A DNA stretch of 64,000 bases from Octopus vulgaris (lineage: Eukaryota). The position numbers and the translations under genes were made by a program. Below the pieces are notes generated by a model. The model worked only from the letters and a program-made list of their open reading frames with translations, did no database searches and was not told the DNA's origin. Within the stretch, counting starts at the first letter, position 1, and each line of letters opens with the position of its first letter. Below, in pieces: positions 12,951 through 56,914 of this stretch. Location: positions 134,478,001-134,542,000 of the forward strand of contig OX597817.1 in NCBI GenBank assembly GCA_951406725.2, in the 5' to 3' direction.

Positions 12951-15214
12951 GTTCACCCTGAAAAGGGTGATTAGAATAGAATCGACAAGTTTTAGCAAAG
13001 GACTAGCAGTAAAAAGAAACGGAGCAGAGGCAGGGCTAGTTAAAAGTTTAGACGAGGCTTTTAGAAAAGCCATCGTACTGCGACGCAGGGAGATTGGTAC
13101 TCGACCAATTCTTCAACGCGAAACACGAAGGTTGTGTTGTCAGAGCTTAGGCACGAGCACTTAGACACGAAGGGACGAACGCCGTTCAATAGGCCGGAGT
13201 GGCAAAGACACGGCGCGGCAATAAATCCATGGATTACGACGGGCAAAATGATAACAGATCCGAGACAGATTTGCGCGGCCTTTCATCGGCACTTCTCTCA
13301 ATTGATAGGGAGCAGCGGTGAGTTGGATCGCAGAATGGATTTCACGTCCTACCTCGACGTACAGCTGCGGCTGTCGGAGACGGAGTACTGCGAAACGCCG
13401 ATAAAAGAATTTGAAATACGGGAAGCAATGGCTAGCTGCACGAGGGGTAAATCGCTTGGTTTGGATGGTCTGCCCTACGAGCTTTACGCTTACATTCCAG
13501 ACTTGTTCGGCGACCTCTTAGCAAACGTTTACTGCAACTGGTGATAGAATGGGAGAATTCCCAGTTTTGTGATCCTGAAGAACGGTGGTTTTGGGTCTGT
13601 ATTCGGGTCTGTATTCAGGGGCTGAATCACTGCAATGCACAGCGACATCTGTTCAGTGGTTAGAGTGAATGGCCACCTCTCAGAGCCGTTCAACATGATG
13701 CACTAGGTCCGGCAAGGTTGCCCCCAACTCTCTCGTCTCTCTTGTATGCACTGACTCTCGAGACAATACTACACAAATCGGAGGCGTTGAGAGGCATCCC
13801 TCGTGGTCTAGGACGTGGGAGATGCGTGTCGGCATATGCCGACAACGTCACCATAGTGGTGTCGGTTCTTAAACACATAGAAACGATCAACACCGCTCTC
13901 AGGGACTGCGATGTGGTTTCAGAAGCGACAATTAACTAAGAAATATCAGTGGGCTTGCGGCTCGGCACCTGGAGAAGCAAGTCTATGCTGTCCGACTGCG
14001 TCGTTGGGCGCTGGACAGACAGACTGGTTAAATTGCACGGAATTTGGTTCGGTCTGGAACTCCAGATGGACTAAACTGGGACGAGGTAACGAGCAGTTTG
14101 ACTACTCTTACCCAGAAATGGGTCGAGAGAAAGCTATCCCTGAAAGGTCGGGCAGAGGTGGCTAAAGCGCATATCGCGTCCGTCATCTACTATCGCTTGA
14201 CCGTAGTGCCTTGTTCCGACCACCGTCTGATTACCCTGGAGAGTATACTCTTCCACTTCATGGGGGAAGGGACGCGTCCCGATTATCAAGTGGTCAATCT
14301 GCTGTCAAAACCCACTGAATTGTGACCTGGTCATGCAGTGGTTAACTAAGTGCAGACATGCGGTAAGGCTAAGACATATCCAGAGCTTCCTTGGCGGTAA
14401 ATAGGCGTGGTCGCCGTTCGCCGGAAACATATTTCCGCAGCTAGTTTCTTAACGGAGCTGCAGTCCTGGGTAAAATAGAGACTGAGATGGGGCATTTGGA
14501 AAGTGGATTGTCTTGAAGCGCTCACAGCCCTCAGCCAAGCGGACAGTGCGATAGGTGGAACGTTCACTTTAGATTTTCATAGAGGATTAGTGGAGGAAAA
14601 GTGTGACGACGTTCTGGAGATACCTTGAATGTCGAAGAAGGTCAACTAGCCGCTCTTTTCCGCAGACATTTCAGCCGGGACCGATAGGTGATTTTCAAAA
14701 ATCTCTGGCCTGGCAGTGCTACCGGGGAGCTTTGCCTGTTCGAGATAAACTTTACAGGCATCGAAGTGCCGTCAGCCGAGCATGTCCAAAATACACACAG
14801 GACGACGAGACGGTGCTGCATGCATTCGTCCAGTGACGAATGCAGGAGCACCATCGAGCATTGCTGACCCATGGGTTTATGCCCAACACCTGCAGCCGCG
14901 CGTGGCACAGATACGGCTTCAAATAAATCCATCGTGAATATTGCAGTGACGACTTTCTTTAACCGGGAAAGAAAGGCTGTGTTTATATCCCAGGTGGCTA
15001 TGGCGAAAGATGTATGATGGACGAGATTAAAGGAGCTGAAGACAAACACTTTTCTCTTTGGTCAATCCCTGATCAACTTCTTCAAGCTTCACTTGAAAAG
15101 GAAAATAAGGGTAGAGAGAGGGAAGTGTTGTCTTCTGGCCAGTTTGCTGAAAGGTGTATGAAAGTGGCGAGAATAGTGAGAGTGAACAGGCCTGCCCTGA
15201 GAATACGCCTGTAA
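12951..15214 (+). mobile_element. Decayed Tx1/L1-clade LINE ORF2 (reverse transcriptase and C-terminal Zn knuckle), 5'-truncated
   Basis: Across frameshifts: KSLGLDGLPYELY, RQGCP, SAYADNVT, LSLKGRAEVAK, ALPVRDKL, CPKYTQDDETVLHAF. Multiple stops and internal deletions. Confidence 0.85.
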
Positions 15215-21483: not shown

Positions 21484-21662
21484 TGCGTGAGTGAACAATA
21501 TGAATAAACCTCGGCGAATCTTATCCTTAAATTTGTAAAACAGTCGAAGGCTTTCTTAAAAGTGAAGTCGAAATATGCACTAGCATTGTAATACAAAATA
21601 ACTATAAGGTGTAAAGTCAAATCCAAATGCGGCAATCGAAATTTTCCGAATGTCAAAGCGTT

Positions 21663-23120
21663 TTATTCATACGGTATTTTATCAGTTGACATTTTAAACC
21701 TCGTGGCATGCCTGCAAGTATTTAAGGGCTTACGTCTCTCGTTCACAGCATGTTTATCCTGGAACAGGTTGAGGAACTTTTCTGAGAAGCAAATATTACA
21801 TTTTATGGGTCTTTTATAAGCTCCATGTCTGTATGCTTTTTCTAGAATTTCCCTGGTTACATCGAATGGACGGGTGTCATACTCTTTCACTTCCCAAACA
21901 TGCTTTGCAAGACTTATTGCTGTCCTATTCTCAGGGTACCGGAAATAATTTCAGTGAGAATAGACTCGAGTCTTGAATGAATTTTCCGAAGTTCCTGTGT
22001 ATGATTTATATACTTGTGACCCATCTACTTGCAATTTAGTTCTATAAGCTATTCCTTTTTCAAGATATTTACCTTCCAACGGGCAGCAAGTCTTATCTCT
22101 GAATTTGCAGTTCCTCTTATTAGATTCGGCACTGTAGTTGTTTGTAATAATTTTCGTCTTATGCAGACTGATAAAAGAGGCGAAGCTTTTGCAACAAGAA
22201 TAGCTAACCTTCATTGATCTCCTATTAAAAATTCTATAGAACTTATGGCTAGATTGAAAATGCTTAAAAACTAATTTTAAGAATTCCCCTAACTATATTC
22301 GTTTTTACGGCAATATTGAATGCGGGGTTAAACCACAACATTTTCCTAGTTCTAGTTTTATGTGGTCTATTATTGTTAGAATTAGTTTGACTCTACTGGA
22401 TCTTTTCCTAGAATCCACTTTTCCTTGATGCACTATTATAACACGGCGAGCCATTTTGAAATGCTGTCAAATCCGAACTTATTGAGGATACGCGCCTTCC
22501 TATATTACTAACTAGGTTCTTAAGAATTACGGATGGATGATTAGCTGCTTTGCTGATATAACATAATTTTCATTTGGCTTATGGTAGGGTTTAAATTTAT
22601 CTAATTGCAAATCTAAGTAGAGATCTAAAACAATTTTACGTTATTAAGGTTACTTTCTATCATAATCCGTAAGACCATTCTTTGGAAGAAAGTAATCAGA
22701 TTCTTCCTAAGTTTATCTAAGTCATGGCTGTTTAAATTATGGGTGACTACAAGACCCTCATCCCAGTATAAGCCTTCATCTATAAAAGGGAATTCTAGAT
22801 GTAGATTATGCAAAATATAAGTTCCTATAAGCATACACAATTCCGCTCCATTATATGCCCCCCATCGGTACATCGAAAAGAGAATCTTCACTCTTTTTGA
22901 CCCAAGTGGAATTATCACGAAAAGGAAGGGATTTCCTTACATGCAGGATAATAAATATTCCGAGCTATTGGTGGTGACATACTGCTTGGCGAAATCTCAT
23001 GCTTTTAGAAGCAAAAGCCTAGAGATTAACGGGTAAAAATCAACAATATCAAACTGTGTAAATTTGCAATTATGCCTCTGGCTACTTCTTTTGAACTAAT
23101 CTATCACTGACTTGCCATTT
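21663..23120 (-). mobile_element. Decayed Penelope-like element (RT and GIY-YIG endonuclease)
   Basis: Across frameshifts and stops: FTQFDIVDFYP, GAYNGAELCMLIG, GLYWDEGL, KVSYSCC, CPLEGKYL..GIAY...YTGTSENSFKTR...H, KCNICFSEK, LNTCRH. Confidence 0.9.
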
Positions 23121-23185
23121 TTTCAAATCCGTAAATATATACATCATAACGTATATACGCAAACATTTTTAAAAACTGTATGGTA

Positions 23186-23329
23186 TTCTTTTACTTGTTT
23201 CAGTCATTTTGACTGCGGCCATGCTGGAGCACCGCCTTTAGCCGAGCAAATCGACCCCGCGACTTATTCTTTGTAAGCCCAGTACTTATTCTATCGGTCT
23301 CTTTTTGCCGAACCGCTAAGTGACGGGGA
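23186..23329 (-). mobile_element. SINE family A, 3' fragment
   Basis: Near-identical to the reverse complement of 372-505. Confidence 0.8.
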
Positions 23330-23860
23330 AATATATATATTAAAATGTTAGAATAAAGAAATTGCACAATAGATATATATAACATAATTATTTTGGACCA
23401 CCAAGCCTCCAGAAACTGCTCTTGGACTCATAAAACTCTAACTCAACCCCTTAGTTGCTGATATCATTACCATTCTGCGTAAATCGGTCTTTTTTATATG
23501 TAAACCTATGTACATTTTTTGTATAAAATATCGATAATATTTTTTTGTTTATCGACTTGCCCCACTTGCTTGTCCTTACACTATTTAACTTCTTTAAAAT
23601 ACGATCTAAAAAATATTTGCTAATAATACCTATTTCAGTTTTAGCCGGGTTAATTAGTCTACATTTAGGGTTTCTATTGAAATTAGCATCGTAGTATTTA
23701 AGGGTGATAAAGGGTTAGTGTGTGGTAGGGTATTCTATCCTATAATTAGCTTTAAGATTGTTAACAATTCTTTGTCTCCAAATTCACCTTTTTATAGAAA
23801 ATTGTGTTATGCTTTTTGTAGGTGTCAGTGAGGCTAAAAGTTGGCAGTCATTTCAGGATA

Positions 23861-33516: not shown

Positions 33517-34050
33517 AATCATCATCATTGTTCGACCGTGGTCGAGACAATGGAATTTACCATGCTACGCCAGACTTCACGGTCCATCATGGCATTACGG
33601 AGGTCCTGTTGCTGGATGCCTGTATCCCTGGAGATCACATCAGGGTAGGAGAGTGTGCACCCTCTGGTATTGCGAGTAGATGGCTTCCAGAGGAGAAGAG
33701 TAGAAATTACTTCTTTTTCAGCTCTACAATAATGTCCAGCAAACTGGACTCTCCTACCTTTCACAAGAGATGACACAGGTAGTAGTTTCCCATATATTTG
33801 CATTTTGGTTGGATGGCGCTTCCACGAGAGATTTTGAGCTCTCATAGGGAGGCGAGTGTAGGTTCCATCCAACCGCCTCTCAAGCTTCTTTGATAACGTC
33901 CAGGTTTCTGAGCCATATAGTAGAATTGGTTCGACTGTGGCTTTGAAGATTTCAAGTTTGAAGTCTCTACTTAGATTTGATGACCAGATCTTATGCATGT
34001 CATTACAGGCTGACCAGGCCATACCCTTTCTAGTAATAATCCAGTCTGTA
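33517..34050 (-). mobile_element. RTE-type LINE ORF C-terminal fragment
   Basis: AWSACNDMHKIWSS...KLEIFKATVEPILLYGSETWTL...RRVQFAGH...DREVWR, with a short (TGA)n tail. Confidence 0.85.
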
Positions 34051-35039
34051 TTATTCATTTTTGGATGGAACGAACTACCACGAAATAAACAAATGAAACA
34101 GTTGAACGCCATGGATTAATAAGAGGTGGAAAGAGCAATGAGAATATATATGCGCTTCTTGCGAGTCCATTAGAATTGCGAGGGAAAATACGGAAGTAAA
34201 AAGCTATTCATGGCTCACCTTCAGATGACAGGACGTAAATAGTGAGCTTCGTTAAAGGTATTACTTGGTCATGATGATGTGAAACCGGAGTTACGGATGA
34301 AGATTTACAGCGGGTTGCGTATAAACTTTCTAACTACTTATAGTTTTTAAATCTTGTTTGTTAAAGATAATTTGGCCCGTTTAATTTCCATATTTGTGAT
34401 CTTGTTTAATGTGGAATAAAGCTGTATACATCGTAGATTATTACAGGCTCCTAGTTTCTCTGAGCAAAGATAATGAATGTTCCCTTTCTGTGGAAGATGC
34501 TAGGCCTTATTTCTTATTTAGATATAAGTTTGAAAGCAGAGTCGAAAGAGAGGAGTTACTACTAAATGAAGGGCGAAACGGTTTAAATGCACAAATCTCC
34601 GATACACAAGTAGCTACAAATTATCAGTGAGAGGGCAGAGAGGAGACATGACCTGGATGTAGCCCGGCCCTATTAGAGTATAAGAAATAAAGGGCTAAAC
34701 GATTGCCTGAGACAGGTTTCTTCTCTGAAGAACTTCTGCTATTTAGGTCTCTTGCGAGATTCTTACCATTTAATCAATACACATGTACGCACATACATAC
34801 ATACTTGCATGCAAAAATACCCTGTTGCTGATGAAATGCCAATAAAGGAACCTTGGATCTAGGTTAGAAACCAGTTCTTTCTCTATTGGTAAGAAATCTT
34901 AAAATAAACTGAATAATGACATGCATACATATATACATACATGTGTGTGTGTGTGTACTGATAATACTGTACACGTACCGGGTACTCACGTTGTATTTTT
35001 TGTGTTTGTTGTTTTATGGATTTACTATATATATATGTA

Positions 35040-41127: not shown

Positions 41128-41468
41128 AGTGCTCTAATTATTGACACAGTAATGCTAAATTACTATAATGATGCGCAGTAGTGAGTCGAAAACTAAAGGA
41201 CATCCACTGCTCCAGTTGCTGCAGAGTAAAGGAAAGTATTTGTCTTCTCATTTCTACTCGGGACAACAGCAATGGTACATAATGATTTCTGTAAGGACTT
41301 TGACGATAAACACAGAGGATGGAAATGTTCCAAAATATAGCAACACTGGCGTCTTCAAACGCTACTTAAACGTTTTAATGTACGTTTTTTTTTTTCAAAA
41401 AATACTTGTGGCTTTGAGAAAGAAAATTCTTGTAGCATAAGTAAGAAATGTTATACTACTACTACCAA

Positions 41469-43036
<1,568 letters not shown>

Positions 43037-44786: not shown

Positions 44787-44832
44787 CCTGAACTGACGAT
44801 GAGCGATACACTCAGAAACATATGTCCTCAGG
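44787..44832 (+). ncRNA. Type I hammerhead ribozyme with intact core
   Basis: CCTGAA-CTGACGA-TGAG cgataca CTCA-GAAA-C ATAT G-TC-CTCAGG. GUC site, predicted cut after 44826. One A-C mismatch at the base of stem I. Confidence 0.8.
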
Positions 44833-45533: not shown

Positions 45534-45810
45534 TATTTATATTATATATGTGTGTATATTATTTATATTATATATATACACACATATATATACATATATA
45601 TATATATGATGAACTAGGCTATAAACTGACCCCATAAAAACAAAAAAAAAAATCAGTGACAGGCAGAGTCTGTAACAATGTATATCTTCTTGAAATGCTT
45701 GGAGTAAGAACACCGCGTTCTTTGTCTATCTCTTTAACTTCTTGGGGATTCTAGGTATAAGTATACTAATATGTCTATCTGTTCTAATTTAATTAAATTC
45801 TATGTCCTTG

Positions 45811-45905
45811 TGCAGCTGAAGATTGCTCTGCATTTTAAATTGATGTTATGAGTGCATTATTCAATTATTCAATTAAATGGAGTTGCATGAAACGATCGTA
45901 CTGCA
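45811..45905 (+). ncRNA. Type I hammerhead ribozyme with a long stem II insertion
   Basis: TGCAG-CTGAAGA-TTGC...GCAT-GAAA-C GATC G-TA-CTGCA. Perfect 5-bp stem I. GUA site, predicted cut after 45900. Confidence 0.75.
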
Positions 45906-46033
45906 TTACCTCTGAATATGCTTGTTGCTTATATATATATATATATATATATATGTTAAACAGGACGTCAAACGTTAAGGCAAGGCAAACATCTCAAGTC
46001 ATATACAATATTATTATGGGAAAAAATTTAAAA

Positions 46034-46089: not shown

Positions 46090-47571
46090 AAATTGGGGGG
46101 GGTATGGTAAACGAGAATGGTATATATCAATAAAATGACAGCATAGAGGAAGGGAGTAAAATAATATAGAAATAAAAAGAGAGAGGCGAAAAAGAGGCTT
46201 ATAAGTTCATAGTTCAATTTCCGAAGTTATAGAAACCAGGGCATGAGCCCTTAGGTATAATCCTGCGTAGATCCATGGGTGTAAGTCTTTAGGTGCAATC
46301 CTGTATAGATCCATGTCGGTTAAAGTCCTTATTTAGCAGACATCCCAAGAAAAAAACGCCAACATATCAGTGTTCAATAACAAAATGGTAGCAGAGGTGG
46401 CTGTTAATTGGTAAAAGTAGAGAAAAGAAAAGAAATAGAAAGAGGGGTAGATAGCGTGAGGTAGGGGGATTTTAAGGATTGGCTATAGGATAAAGTAAAG
46501 TGCATATGTGTAAGGTGTCTAGGAATTGTGTATGGGGTAGTCGAGAAGATAAGAGAGAAGATAAGGTGGTAAAGGAAGATACGGTAAAAAAAGAGCGAAA
46601 TGAAAGGAATTTAAAGAGAGTACTAGATATCTGGTAGTTTCAAAGTCTAAAGTTGTTGGGGAGAAAATTTGGTAGTAATTACTTGTGTCCATCCTGGCTA
46701 AGGTCAGTGGCTGGACAGTTATTTTTAGCAATGGGGCTGTGTGAGCGTAGGTATTCGAGAAAGGAAGAGCTGATTGAATATGAAATTATTTATGAGTAGG
46801 AGTTAGAATTAGGGATTTGTATTAGGGATTTTGGGGGTTAAGGTTTAAAATAAATTAAGGATGAATTAAAGAATTAATATTTATCTCAAGCATGGTGAGG
46901 TACGGCAGATAGATATGAGGTAAGACATAAAATACAAATAAGAGTTATAGAGATATAGAAGTATACGTTAATGATCATAGGGGTATTATGTGGGTGATAT
47001 TAGTGGCGGGGTGAGCTTACATTTAGATTTATGAAAGAATTTAAAAGTGCGGAAGAATTTGTGCTTACAAGTATTGAAGGCCTCGTTGTATTTATAAAAA
47101 GGCCAAGAAATATATCTTTAAACCACGTTTTGATAAATCCAATAACGGAAGATATAGAATCTGGCTGTTAAATGGTAAGTGACATTGAAAACCTCTAGAG
47201 CATTAATAGTCTCTGTTCCCCCTACCCCTCTAACTTCAACCTACTAGCTTTTTGCTATAATACACTCAAATGTATCTAAACTGAATGAGGATGGGTTTAT
47301 GGTTTTCACATTTGTACTACCCCTTCCTATATCTATAAATAGAAAAAATTCTTGTTTGTCTCCATTCAACCAAGAATAAAACCCCCTCCTCACTGACAGA
47401 TCTAAACAATAAAGGGAACTTAATGATAAAAATCTACTAGAGTGAACATACTACTAGCATGTTCTTAAGAATGAAATCAACCTCTCTCTATATATCTACC
47501 CTCTTTATAATGTTGGCAAATGAAACAGGGATAAGAATGTGCATTGTCCGTTTAATTGGAAAATTCTATAA

Positions 47572-47657
47572 ATGGCTGAAGATTGCTCGACATTTTAAAA
47601 CTGATGTAATACTTACAGTGTTTAATAAAATGAAGTAGCATGAAACAATTTTACTAT
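47572..47657 (+). ncRNA. Type I hammerhead ribozyme, paralogue of 45811-45905, with stem III G mutated
   Basis: ATGG-CTGAAGA-TTGCT...AGCAT-GAAA-C AATT T-TA-CTAT. Shares GCTGAAGATTGCTC, CATTTTAAA, TGATGT and GCATGAAAC with the 45811 copy. Confidence 0.65.
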
Positions 47658-47994
47658 TCTGCCTAGCATGACCATACGTGTTCTGTCTCTGCCTTCGAAA
47701 CACGTGTCTGCGAGCGACAGATGATGAAGGGGATTTTTCCTTGTGCAGCATGTCCTGTACTTCGTTTTTCTGCTGCACATAATTGTTTTTCCCGTTTTCG
47801 TTTTCATTTCGTCTTGTTCCACGTCTCTGTCCTTCTGTTGTAAAAAAATGGCTTTTTCGTTTTCGTTCTGTTGATTTTTACGTCTTCTTGTGATGTCCTG
47901 TACGTATATATATATTTATATATGCATGTATATATACATGTAGATGTCGGTACGTACAGATATGTTTGTATGTATGCATATATTTTATTTATTA

Positions 47995-51988: not shown

Positions 51989-54388
51989 TATGTTTGACTT
52001 TTGCTTTATATTTGTACAAGTTGGCTCCAAGTCTCACCAAGAGACCTCAAGAGACAACATGTTGTTGTTATGCCTAGTGTGCCATATATTTGGGGGTTTT
52101 TTGTGTTGTACTAGTGAATGCCTAAAAAAGCATCCGAAATTTATGTTTGTTTTAAAACTTGAGATTACATAGAAAGTATTTTGCGTAGGATATGAGCAGT
52201 TCCCATGAGCACTATCTTTTGAATTTCTGCCATTTTGGGGTTTCCTGGTATCTGAGTTAGGTAGCAATCAGCCACTTTTGCTATCATTCCCAGGGCACCT
52301 ATGACAACAGGTATTGTCTTAGTCTTCAGGTTCCACATTTTGCTGATTTCTATTTCAAGATCTTTATATTTGCTCAGTTTTCAGTAAGTCTTGACAGATA
52401 CGTTTATATCGATTGGGACAGTCATATCAATGAAGAGGCATGTTCTTTGTGTGAAGTCTTTCAATATGATGTCAGGCCTATTTGCATCTATCTTTCTGTC
52501 AGTTTGAATGGTGAAGTTCCAGAGGAGTGAGATGTGGTCATTTTCAGGCACTGGAGGTGGTTTGTGTTCCCACCAGTTTTTTCATGGGGCAAATCCAGGC
52601 TTTTGCAAATTACCCAGTGAATATATAGTGCAGCTCTATCATGCCTGTTGAGATACTCTGTAGGCGCGAGAAGACTGCACTTGGAGACAACATGATCAAT
52701 GGTTTCATTTTGTTGTTGACATACACGAAATATTGGGCAACTGCCGTTCTTTAATATGTTGGCCTGGTAGATTCTTGTTGGTAGGCATGGACCTTGCAAT
52801 GATAAATCCTTCTGTTTCAGATTTTAAGCCTGAGGCCATTAGCCACTGATGGGTCATGGCTTTGTCAACATCTGCATTATTCACTCTCTTTGGGTATTTG
52901 CCATAGAGAGCTTTTTCTAGCCATTTATCATTCAGAATATCTAAGGCCGCAGTTTTAGCACGGGCTTTCATGCGCTTAGCGTTTTCTGTGCTTGTTTCTT
53001 GTATGTCTAATTCCGAAATTTGTTGTATTTGAAATTCGCTTAGATATTCCTTTGCCTGTTTTGATACTGAGTATGATGCTTTCTTGTTGTCGTGGTTTGA
53101 GACAAGTTTTAACATCCAGTCCTCAGAGGCTTTCAGGTTGGTGGCTAGGCCAATTGTAGCAATCTTCATTGTTATTGCCAGTTGTAAAAGTCCACGGCCT
53201 CCCTCTTTTCTTGGCAGATAAAGTCGTTCTGTATCTGCCTTAGGCTGGTGCATTCAATGCATTGTCAACGGTTTTCGTATTTTTCTGTGAAGATTACATA
53301 TTTCAGTAATTGACCAGTTAACGATGCTGAAAATGTAAGTCACGACTGGTATGGCTAAAGCATTGATCGCTTCGATCCTGTTTCTCGCATTCAGCTTTGT
53401 CTTGAGTATTACTCTTACTCTGCAATAACATTCTCTCCTGATCCTTTCCTTCATCACTGAATGCCTTATTCCTTCCCCGTCAATTGCCCCTAGGTACTTG
53501 TAGCCCTCCGCTAGGTCTAATTCTTTTATGACATTCTGCTGGTCAAGGTTAGATGTTTTATTAGAATATTGATTTCTAATATTGACACAAGGCCACCACT
53601 TTTCGGGTAGGGAACAATCGATTAAATCAACTACCTAGCCCTCCCACCACCACCACTTCTACCTCCATTACTTGTTGTGATTAGTAGAATATTAATGACT
53701 TTGTTCGTTGTTTTTCTTGTTGCAGAGAATGAGCTCTGATAAAGGTAGCTTTTGCACATTTATCGAAGCCAAATTGCATTCAGATGTCATCACTGAATTG
53801 TTTGACAATCGCTAGTAAGCCCTTGAGTTGTTGGTCATTTTTTGCGAAGAGCTTTAAATCATCCATGTAAATGAGATGATTTATATTTTTATCAAACATT
53901 TTATATCCGTAGTGCGCGTCATTGAGCAGTTTTGAGAGAGGTATTAAGGCTAAACAAAAGAGGAGTGGTGATAGTGAGTCACCCTGGAAAATGCTACTTA
54001 AATTTTTACATCACCAGCATTTAGAGATTCATTGTCACTGTTCAAAGTTAGTGTGGTTCTCCATGATCTCATACTTACAGACAATACGTTTCGCAGTGTA
54101 GGTGCTATTTTATACATTTCCAGGTATTTCTTAATCCAGATATGTGGTAGGCTATCAAAAGCCTTTTTATAGTCTATCCAGTCTATTGCTGCTGTCTGTT
54201 AAAAAACTATAGGTATATTCCGTCAAGACAGATGTTAGCGATTTATACACAGTTGTTAAGCAGGTGATGGGTCTATAGTTTTTTGGTTCATTTGTTTTTC
54301 ACTTTTTGGAAGCAGGAATGTTAAACCATTAACTAGCCAAGGAGGCATCCTACTAGGGCGTTGCAAAACATCATTGAAAAAGTTTTAC

Positions 54389-54891: not shown

Positions 54892-55468
54892 ATATATATA
54901 TGTATGTATATATATATATATATATATATACACATTTATGAGTTTGTGTTTATGTATATATATATCTGTATTCATACTCAAATATACACATATATGAATA
55001 CGTTTGTTTGTAAAAATATAGTTTATTGATTCAAATATTGTACTCAACATTTCTGTGAATATAGTATCTTATATTCTTTATTAGGTTAAAATATTCCAGA
55101 GTTAATCCCATTTCATAGCTGCAAAAGATATGCATCTTCAAACAGGAAATCTACTCTAGTTTCTGGTGTAAATAAGTTCAGGAGTTTTTTAAAATTCAAC
55201 GTAGTTTTAGAATGTGAAGAAAAATTGATTTTATTTTCATTGTTCAGCCTGAAACCTATTACTATATTACTTCTGTCTGTCAAGACAAAATGCAATGGCC
55301 TTTCACTTAAAAACAGTCACTGAGAGATACACCCATCCGATCCTCAGCACTCGAAATCAATAAACAGGGGAACAATTACATGGTACATACGCTTATTCAC
55401 ACATAGACAGGAACACGGAGACATCTCTACAAATATTTAAATAGAGTTGAACGCAGGTGTTATTCAAA

Positions 55469-55570
55469 TTCTCTTACTTTCGACATATGTTTCGAAGACA
55501 ACATTGGTTTTATTCCAAAGGAATAAACGGTGTAAAATGATGTAATCTTCTCATCAGGAAAGAAAGAGAA
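55469..55570 (-). ncRNA. Type I hammerhead ribozyme downstream of a Penelope-like ORF, intact core
   Basis: Minus strand: TTCTCTTTCTTTC-CTGATGA-GAAGAT...GTCTTC-GAAA-C ATAT G-TC-GAAAGTAAGAGAA. Stem I has 12 of 13 pairs. GUC site, predicted cut between 55482 and 55481. Confidence 0.88.
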
Positions 55571-55788
55571 CCTATCTCAACAAGACATAGCAAGTTTGAT
55601 GACTGCATAAATGATAAACAGAACGCTCTTAAGAATTTTTTAAAAAACCGTTAGTAGATCCGACGTCAAATGCAGACCCTAGGAAGAGAAGGGGTAAAGA
55701 AATAATAAGTAAAGCACAAATAAAGAGGGATATATTGAAATAAAGTGCAAGGTGAACTAAATGTTCAAACTATATAGACTGGTAAAAA

Positions 55789-56560
55789 TCACTTATATGA
55801 GCTAAAGGTATGTTTCTGCCAGTAGTTACATTTGTAAGATCGCTCTATATGTGTGTTAACAAGGTGATTCTTAGAGAAGAGAATATGGGAGAGTTCAGAG
55901 TCGCAACTGTTACAAAATCCTTTGTCCTTGTCATAAGGGAAAGAGATGGACAGTATGAACCTATCTAACTTAAAATCCTTATTGTTGTCTTTAAGATACC
56001 AAAACAATTTACTTAGTCCTCTGCTATAACGTTTACTACTATTCCTAAATGAAGAATAATGATTGGAAATTCTCTTAAATAACTGGGAAGAGGACGCGCC
56101 AATATAGAAATGACAGCGGTACCGCAAGAAATTTTACATTGGGATATACAATTCTTAATCTTAGAATTATTAGACTTAATTTTTATTCTGTTGGGGTTGA
56201 CCTCAGAGACCAAAACTATGTTGTTATTATCATTATCATAATTATTATTATTATTATTAGTAGTAGTAGTAGTAGTAGTAGTAGTATGATGATGATGACG
56301 ATGTGAAGGGCTGGTATTAACAAAATTAATGTTGGAACCCTCAGAAAATGAACCTTTATTTAGCAGACGGTATTATGATGAGATATAATTTGTTAAAGAT
56401 TCTTTGTGTTGGAGAAAGGAACTCTAACTATATGAGAATAAATAATTGACAAATATCTAGAATTTTTTGGAAAGTTCTTATCAACCACTTCACGGAACTG
56501 CAGAGGAAGATTAGATTTAATTTGCCTTCCATACGGAATAACAAAGCAAACTGTTTTCAA
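55789..56560 (-). mobile_element. Penelope-like element, linker and GIY-YIG fragment
   Basis: IPYGRQIKSNLPLQFREVVDKNFPKNSRY, FYIGASSSQLFKRISNHYSSF, LSKLFWYLKD, CNSCDSEL, KCNY. A low-complexity trinucleotide tract lies at 56220-56302. Confidence 0.8.
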
Positions 56561-56582
56561 ACAAAGGATAATTCATTTATCC

Positions 56583-56631
<49 letters not shown>

Positions 56632-56839: not shown

Positions 56840-56914
56840 TGAGTCAATCATGAGACTCGAACTCACATCCCTGTGATTACGCGTCAAGTGCTTTAACGTT
56901 AAGCTAAACTGCCC
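56840..56914 (-). pseudogene. tRNA-like sequence (Thr-CGT-like pseudogene or isolated SINE head)
   Basis: GGGCAGTTTAGCTTAACGTTAAAGCACTTGACGCGTAATCACAGGGATGTGAGTTCGAGTCTCATGATTGACTCA. The T arm is good; the acceptor and anticodon stems are imperfect. Confidence 0.55.

Follow-up and report, generated by a model that had tools for sequence, protein, structure and literature searches.

Hammerhead ribozymes near the ends of Penelope-like elements (PLEs), including the Hydra family of octopus, are already published and the association is well known. In the Hydra clade they lie at the 3' side, and one belongs to Hydra-1_Obim of Octopus bimaculoides (Craig et al. 2021, PMC8557442), an element that ends about 36 nt after its own cut site and is annotated 'no pLTR'. 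According to section 11 of the same paper, the nucleases of this clade have no CCHH motif and carry CxxC and CxH around a conserved E and N; the paper's core-only hammerhead search used a spacer of 7-17 nt. The clade is further marked by RWK and DKT motifs in the reverse transcriptase and by a cysteine linker, CxCX5C, that has been proposed as a guide for (TA)n targeting. PLE hammerheads with a short palindromic stem III are reported to act as dimers, at low rates (PMC4209133; PMC6765202), and invertebrate retrozyme hammerheads with a stem III of 2 bp plus a tetraloop are reported to cleave well as monomers (PMC7229834). In a lizard PLE, reverse transcription begins in an AC-rich stem-loop, and the hammerhead was cut only with the element's protein present (PMC11167929). 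The expression 'long helix II' is used in PMC13725137, and the main text of an Octopus vulgaris repeat annotation (PMC13282606) contains neither 'ribozyme' nor 'hammerhead'. A search of mostly open-access literature did not turn up any description of a cephalopod element whose hammerhead has a long stem II.

The window analyzed here, a stretch of 64 kb of Octopus vulgaris DNA, carries on the minus strand of 55570-55469 a type I hammerhead motif that is complete and whose core is intact, as seen by direct reading of the letters. Its parts are as follows.

55558-55570, minus strand: stem I, 5' strand; 5 proximal bp, a T.T mismatch and 7 distal bp
55557-55551, minus strand: catalytic core C3-A9, CTGATGA, read directly
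55494-55550, minus strand: stem II region of 57 nt; predicted 6 bp, T.T mismatch, 4 bp, 12x4 internal loop, 8-bp hairpin and 3-nt loop
55493-55482, minus strand: second core stretch, with GAAA at 55493-55490 and C17 at 55482
55483-55493, minus strand: GAAA core plus the 8-nt palindrome ACATATGT (55490-55483); predicted stem III of 2 bp in the monomer and 8 bp in an intermolecular dimer
55481-55482, minus strand: predicted cleavage site, GUC, 3' of C17 (between 55482 and 55481), from the sequence and the hammerhead consensus
55469-55481, minus strand: stem I, 3' strand, pairing with 55570-55558

All the conserved positions of a type I hammerhead (C3-A9, G12-A14, A15.1-U16.1 and H17) are present, and the predicted fold has three helices with an open-ended stem I. 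The first-pass annotation had described an exact core, a GUC site and an ATAT palindrome, and all three were found on direct reading. Stem I consists of 13 positions with a single T.T mismatch (55563/55476) and could be lengthened by G.U pairs, and stem III of the monomer consists of 2 bp that flank ATAT, letters that together make up the 8-nt palindrome. In stem II, GAAGAT (55550-55545) pairs with GTCTTC (55499-55494) and G10.1-C11.1 is present. The stretch that this stem encloses, given earlier as about 45 nt with a second hairpin, is exactly 45 nt long and does contain an 8-bp hairpin, at 55527-55509; beyond the T.T mismatch stem II gains 4 further predicted pairs (55543-55540 with 55504-55501), which had been missed. 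The folding stability of the 57-nt region has a z-score of -2.96, with 2 of 200 shuffles equally stable.

Motifs of this quality (stem I of at least 12 positions with one mismatch, stem II of at least 6) were not equalled in any of 300 block-wise dinucleotide shuffles of the window, and a looser standard of 5 and 6 pairs gave 1 match across 300 dinucleotide shuffles. Rfam returned no hammerhead model match, either for the window at the gathering score or for 55200-56000 at E<=10, where two chance matches appeared near the motif. This miss is likely due to the long insert, an Rfam match being a convenience and not a defining property of a hammerhead. A scan with bacterial promoter and terminator models, which are not apt for animal DNA, gave nothing.

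The motif lies behind the remnant of a GIY-YIG nuclease, within an element copy that is laid out as follows (X1 is one of the sequencing runs described below, and P0006 is the closest protein).

56575-56625, no strand: (TA)n tract at the 5' junction, where the remnant is truncated, from the sequence
56372-56557, minus strand: remnant of the linker between reverse transcriptase (RT) and nuclease, with one stop and no RT upstream; aligns to the WFNPP..KHFP..IFN..SYS..HN region of full-length relatives
56221-56310, minus strand: trinucleotide low-complexity tract within the coding region; P0006 is likewise Asn-rich there
56109-56216, minus strand, frame -3: nuclease half with GIY, matching P0006 at 67% over 36 aa
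55789-56109, minus strand: YIG half of the GIY-YIG nuclease up to the stop, with YIG, R, H, CxxC, E, N and a degenerate CxH
55571-55788, minus strand: 3' untranslated part, without the ~37-39 nt found in some paralogue contigs at 55733-55737
55447-55467, minus strand: predicted 6-bp hairpin with an A/C-rich 9-nt loop, between ribozyme and element end, from folding
55432-55438, minus strand: element 3' end; depth drops from ~176,000 to 53 in X1, and other copies run into unrelated, often TA-rich sequence

The ORF stops at 55789-55791 and stem I starts 219 nt downstream on the same strand, which confirms the annotated position in sense about 220 nt behind a GIY-YIG ORF. The 114-aa frame at 55789-56133 holds the YIG half only; the GIY half is in another frame, split off by a one-base frameshift near 56111. 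Relatives align across three frames of 56557-55789, in the order linker, GIY half and YIG half, so that linker, nuclease and stop follow one another as in full-length relatives, with the nuclease at the C-terminus. The 114-aa frame matched 445 proteins at E <= 0.001, the best of them 49% identical; the closest named relative, the one of ten looked up that had a name, is an uncharacterised protein of Octopus sinensis, and hhalign of the YIG half gave a probability of 98.4. The linker remnant aligned to a 703-aa relative with E 6e-6 and to P0006 with 68% over 31 aa. Pfam gave no GIY-YIG match for the window frame and matched 1 of 14 relatives (E 0.0017), and found nothing credible in 4 window frames, a 722-aa relative or P0006. 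Results of the protein comparisons nonetheless identify the upstream remnant as a PLE-type GIY-YIG nuclease. Relatives of about 720 aa have RT-type motifs upstream of the same nuclease; the RT is missing from the truncated window copy, and 45 ORFs of at least 300 aa from related loci matched only linker and nuclease at the locus, with no RT.

The hammerhead's host copy is thus a 5'-truncated, frameshifted remnant of about 1.1 kb. Neither a pLTR nor a tandem copy or second copy of the 3' region was found within the 64-kb window, as expected for a solo truncated copy. A search for a full-length protein of the window copy's subfamily found none, which is a weak negative. The earlier assignment to the pLTR hammerheads of PLEs needs correcting: no pLTR or tandem copy is seen in the window, the motif marks the element 3' end, and the octopus Hydra family carries the 'no pLTR' annotation (PMC8557442).

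Some shorter features accompany the motif. The A/C-rich hairpin sits 10-15 nt before the element end and resembles the AC-rich stem-loop of the lizard PLE, which we note as a resemblance only. About 90-110 nt upstream of the hammerhead core, at 55645-55675 (minus strand), lie the short motifs TGACGTC and CTAACGGTTTTTT; a similar CTAACGGTTTTTT is described upstream of the Penelope-15_HM hammerhead (PMC8557442).

On the association with Penelope, the annotation stands in that the hammerhead lies on the sense strand of a PLE, and the clade can be narrowed. By its sequence the element appears nearest to the Hydra clade. There is no CCHH motif between GIY and YIG, which are only ~10 residues apart in the window copy and in P0006, and the Hydra-type layout CxxC/E/N/CxH is seen. 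CxxC is present in the window copy; the H of CxH is altered, and is kept in ~99% of the aligned depth (X1, 55824) and in P0002-P0004. Further Hydra traits are the hammerhead near the 3' end, with the cut site ~45 nt away, and (TA)n at the 5' junction. In other copies the loose ends at 55431 and 55438 are TA-rich (agreement 0.57-0.66), and the window copy's own 3' junction is merely AT-rich. The linker motif CxCX5C is absent from the window copy and from P0001, P0006, P0011 and P0019, and a CxCX5-6C pattern occurs in 75 of the 90 related loci with enough room. Because CxCX5C is missing and no RT of the subfamily was found, we call the element Hydra-like and not a member of the clade. In the window subfamily a cysteine-free stretch seems to replace the CxCX5C linker, yet many copies adjoin TA-rich DNA.

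The annotation had asked whether other copies of the family carry the motif at the same position, and contig depth showed that they do. Contigs from 4 of 24 listed runs, namely X1, X5 and X6 (DNA-type, bearing three organism labels) and X13 (guessed to be RNA), were aligned to 55100-56200 at 80% likeness. The flank at 55100-55430 is covered by single contigs with depths of 52.7, 41.2 and 2.3 (X1, X5 and X6, in this order here and below). Depth jumps at 55433, and over the hammerhead it reaches 4,037, 8,096 and 7,702 times that of the flank; for the ORF the factor is 565-865. Adding up contig depths does not give a copy number, and we use only the order of magnitude. On this scale the family is a very abundant, multi-thousand-copy Penelope-like retroelement. 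Loose contig ends cluster at 55431 and 55438, which places the element 3' end ~45 nt beyond the cut site. One X5 contig, which crosses from the flank ~30-36 letters into the element, shows 10 differences over 368 letters; this is borderline evidence that two organisms share the insertion, which would make it old. X13 contains contigs of paralogues and none from the window copy's flank, which is evidence neither for nor against expression. No clustering of its contig ends was seen.

A long stem II at the element 3' end is characteristic of the family, because the insert is as deep as the core and contigs cross the whole motif. Relative to the neighbouring core bins, the bin within the insert has a depth of 1.44, 0.72 and 0.77, a fourth ratio being 1.0, and the contigs X1-2, X6-26, X13-9 and X13-10 bridge the complete motif with 2-6 gap letters. 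Only two joints lack the insert, both at low depth (26.5 and 5.8). Two other accounts of the insert were considered and rejected. That it is private to the window copy is ruled out by the family-wide depth and the bridging contigs, and that it is a spliceosomal intron was ruled out by eye, GT..AG ends being absent and family DNA retaining the insert.

We also compared the window copy with its family, at the 40 best-supported of 175 differences. None of these 40 falls in the catalytic core, which suggests that the core is the family's majority form. The copy departs from nearly all aligned depth at many places, for example 55473, 55628, 55634, 55824, 55850 and 55889, and it has therefore aged on its own. 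The annotated 13-bp stem I with one mismatch is indeed present in the window copy, but its outer part is partly private: at 55473 the letter found in >99% of the depth (X1, X5, X6) breaks an in-register outer pair, and variants at 55570 and 55574, read by hand, also weaken it. For the family as a whole, stem I is more aptly given as 5 bp followed by an outer portion that is interrupted. Within the extension of stem II, one more pair would form with the majority letter at 55539, and the majority letter at 55543 retains a pair as G.U; these changes are one-sided and do not amount to covariation. The listed indels in the insert, 3 letters at 55537 and 1 at 55504, are within or at the edge of the internal loop.

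To see the locus among its relatives, we searched with a profile of 14 more typical nucleases. Of 499 metagenome stretches that were confirmed, the 80 with the best scores were used, together with 20 loci from prokaryote assemblies. These 100 loci are distant relatives chosen by best score, and they are redundant, with 24 distinct stem III segments. Under a strict rule (within 700 nt of the nuclease) a sense hammerhead was found in 57 of the 100, against 3 in the antisense control, and in 48 of the 68 loci with at least 300 nt of room. A uniform rule gave 62 motifs in 59 of the 100 loci, at a median of 130 nt after the ORF, with 2 in the antisense control. The relatives' stem III is short and mostly self-complementary. 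The stem II region measures 10-29 nt in 61 of the 62 motifs, against 57 nt in the window family; the exception is a 58-nt candidate (locus L028) whose stem II has 3 bp and whose stem I is broken, at a locus that also has a good short motif, and it is likely to be a chance match even though it is counted among the 62. The position of our hammerhead is thus ordinary, and the length of its stem II is unusual, about twice that of nearly all the relatives examined, but not unprecedented.

Among the relatives with a hammerhead, AACGG or AACCG occurs within 130 nt upstream in 21 of 57, a count made without a control. The 20 loci of assemblies filed as bacterial genomes (L081-L100) have Hydra-type nucleases and are likely to be contamination from animal hosts. 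At two loci (L084, L098) well-formed antisense hammerheads lie downstream of the nuclease, which fits inverted copies of element ends. A family-specific DNA pattern had no match in metagenome contigs; of the candidates for the window nuclease, none of 30 in viral and none of 269 in prokaryote contigs was confirmed, and likewise none of 27 candidates for profile A2 in viral contigs.

Three further hammerheads are present in the window, all on the plus strand, at 44793, 45816 and 47576. The compact one at 44787-44832 shares its 8-nt palindrome with 55490-55483, has 4 bp in stem II and is located inside a longer G+C-rich hairpin; its closing (first) stem I pair is an A.C mismatch. The other two (45810-45906 and 47571-47660, plus strand) form a second hammerhead family, 71% alike over 89 nt, with stem II regions of 66 nt (45816, z = -1.68) and 59 nt (47576, z = -3.09). 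Their stem I sequences differ yet pair in both, and the copy at 45816, in which the 8-nt palindrome is intact, stops ~30 nt short of a (TA)n tract. The first-pass annotation took the main motif to tie all these ribozymes to PLEs. Resemblance and position are in favor of this link, but none of the three shows detectable DNA similarity to the motif at 55570-55469 and no Hydra-type ORF lies nearby. The long paired stem II of the second family also sits uneasily with the reading of the insert as neutral.

Other elements were noticed in the window. A longer Hydra-like Penelope remnant with RT, linker and nuclease and many stops and frameshifts lies between (TA)n tracts at 21660-23850 (minus strand); it belongs to a different family from the hammerhead's host copy, and under the rules used no hammerhead was found behind it. 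The only Rfam match in the window at the gathering score, a tRNA-like sequence at 56842-56913 (minus strand; 31.2 bits, just over the threshold), is probably a SINE head. Broken frames at 41341-42848 (plus), 52488-53634 (minus), 33525-34115 (minus) and 13065-13544 (plus) look by eye like pieces of non-LTR retrotransposon RT and nuclease.

We modeled the folding of three of the window motifs. The active monomer fold of 55570-55469 has P ~0.006, compared with 0.0006 for 45816 and 0.0004 for 44793, and as nearest-neighbour folding ignores core and tertiary contacts, the value of 0.006 understates activity. For two copies, the lowest-energy fold is a two-hammerhead form with an 8-bp shared stem III (-61.0 versus 2 x -26.8 kcal/mol), 7.4 kcal/mol below two separate molecules. 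Considering these predictions, we favor, as likely, cleavage after the GUC (55482) in a dimer, the 45-nt arm being a tolerated extension. Each element RNA would fold stems I and II by itself, and a 2-bp stem III alone would be too weak; two hammerheads would then pair via the ACAUAUGU palindrome to form the shared stem III, and each partner would be cut after C17, so that element RNAs may be trimmed or separated from longer transcripts, possibly with the assistance of the element's protein. As an extension of helix II that goes back to the family founder and that the chemistry likely does not require, the 45-nt insert would be directed away from the core. Since retrozyme hammerheads with a 2-bp stem III cleave alone, the dimer is not obligatory. 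In the animal, cutting from this locus is unlikely unless a partner RNA acts in trans, because there is no same-strand partner and no intact ORF; the sole window motif sharing the palindrome lies on the opposite strand. The annotation had called this the copy most likely to be active. It does have the top predicted fold of the three modeled, but it is truncated, frameshifted and without a same-strand partner, and the claim would hold at best in a test tube.

Other explanations can be weighed against dimer cleavage. The motif could mainly offer the element's reverse transcriptase a structure to grip at the 3' end of the RNA, cleavage being infrequent or unnecessary for mobility. For the one PLE that has been reconstituted in vitro, insertion was unaffected by core mutations, and RNA-seq gave no reads with ends at the cut site (PMC11167929). 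Since our element extends ~45 nt past the cut site, as Hydra-1_Obim does by ~36 nt, the template that was copied was uncut. The exact core, here and in 59 of the 100 relatives, argues instead for selection on the chemistry, and we hold a mainly structural role to be rather unlikely, although it is compatible with dimer cleavage and the two do not exclude each other. Unlikely, too, is that the long stem II is a functional module whose internal loops dock on the stem I interruption or bind protein, substituting for the customary loop 1-loop 2 contact and allowing cutting as a monomer. The insert is retained near full length across the family, the listed indels are confined to the internal loop or its edge, with the majority letters adding a pair at 55539 and keeping one as G.U at 55543, and the interruption of stem I comes after 5 bp, at the point of contact in canonical type I hammerheads (PMC4209133); the second window family also has a paired stem II of 59-66 nt. 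But 61 of the 62 relatives' motifs manage on 10-29 nt, descent from one founder explains the retention without function, and the perfect palindrome points to dimers. It is similarly doubtful that octopus Penelope-like families more than once grew a helix II domain of 55-65 nt as a tertiary-docking or protein-binding module; if true, there would be a class of long-arm genomic hammerheads, in thousands of copies, invisible to Rfam models and to spacer-capped descriptors.

The depth profile raises another possibility, that most copies are a non-autonomous derivative of ~150 nt, retrozyme- or SINE-like, using Penelope-like machinery. Depth over 55433-55580 is 7-10 times that of the ORF in the three DNA-type runs and 26 times in the run guessed to be RNA, in X1 it falls about eightfold at 55581, and animal retrozymes have been proposed to derive from PLE ends (10.64898/2026.07.22.740005). 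The same profile would nevertheless result from 5' truncation and a higher conservation of the ribozyme, the indel region at 55577-55592 and loose ends at 55583 account for part of the drop, no contig joint shows tandem repeats, and the window copy is joined to nuclease sequence; we regard such a derivative as improbable. That the hammerhead is a chance match or an assembly artefact, for which only the failure of Rfam to recognize it speaks, is extremely improbable given that none of the 300 shuffles equalled it and that independent runs contain the flank-to-element junction and very many relatives. Cleavage as a dimer with a tolerated arm is the reading that we retain.

To what was already published on PLE hammerheads, these results add a naturally occurring variant in high copy number that has a long, structured helix II and is missed by standard searches (Rfam; the 7-17-nt spacer of PMC8557442). 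Its thousands of aged copies per genome are a ready covariation data set, and the variant allows a clean deletion test of peripheral domains versus dimer formation as drivers of these poorly understood ribozymes. If the arm is neutral, the finding mainly means that hammerhead counts in such genomes are underestimates. The family may already be catalogued in Repbase or Dfam. Three 11-letter motifs of the window hammerheads were not found in the supplement text of PMC8557442, in which line breaks can hide matches.

Among described systems, the hammerheads of Hydra-clade PLEs, including Hydra-1_Obim, are the most similar: they are of the same type I, in sense, between the C-terminal GIY-YIG and the 3' end, with a short self-complementary stem III, TA-rich junctions and, in the octopus family, no evident pLTR (PMC8557442). 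In the 26 published Hydra rows stem II has 3-7 bp and loop 2 has 3-10 nt, compared with the 57-nt region of the window (PMC8557442); the window motif also differs in sequence from that of Hydra-1_oBim, has no extra unpaired base after A9 and belongs to a subfamily without CxCX5C. The minimal and short-stem-III hammerheads that Cervera and de la Pena (2014, PMC4209133) describe from metazoan PLEs share type I, G10.1-C11.1, the palindromic stem III and a predicted dimer; their helix II is also longer than usual (7-8 bp), that of the window being far longer with an internal loop and second hairpin, and the window motif differs in its long, interrupted stem I and in that no flanking repeat is seen. 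Animal non-LTR retrozymes have the same 2-bp stem III with a palindromic tetraloop and thousands of copies, but they are 170-400-nt tandem repeats with a short helix II and no ORF, whereas the window copy is solo and joined to a nuclease (PMC7229834). For the length of stem II, the precedent is given by the PLE-X1 hammerheads of Selaginella, which come from a plant and a nuclease-less element of another clade, lie near the 5' end and are unrelated in sequence, and whose loop 2 of 35 and 29 nt is flagged as deviating (PMC8557442).
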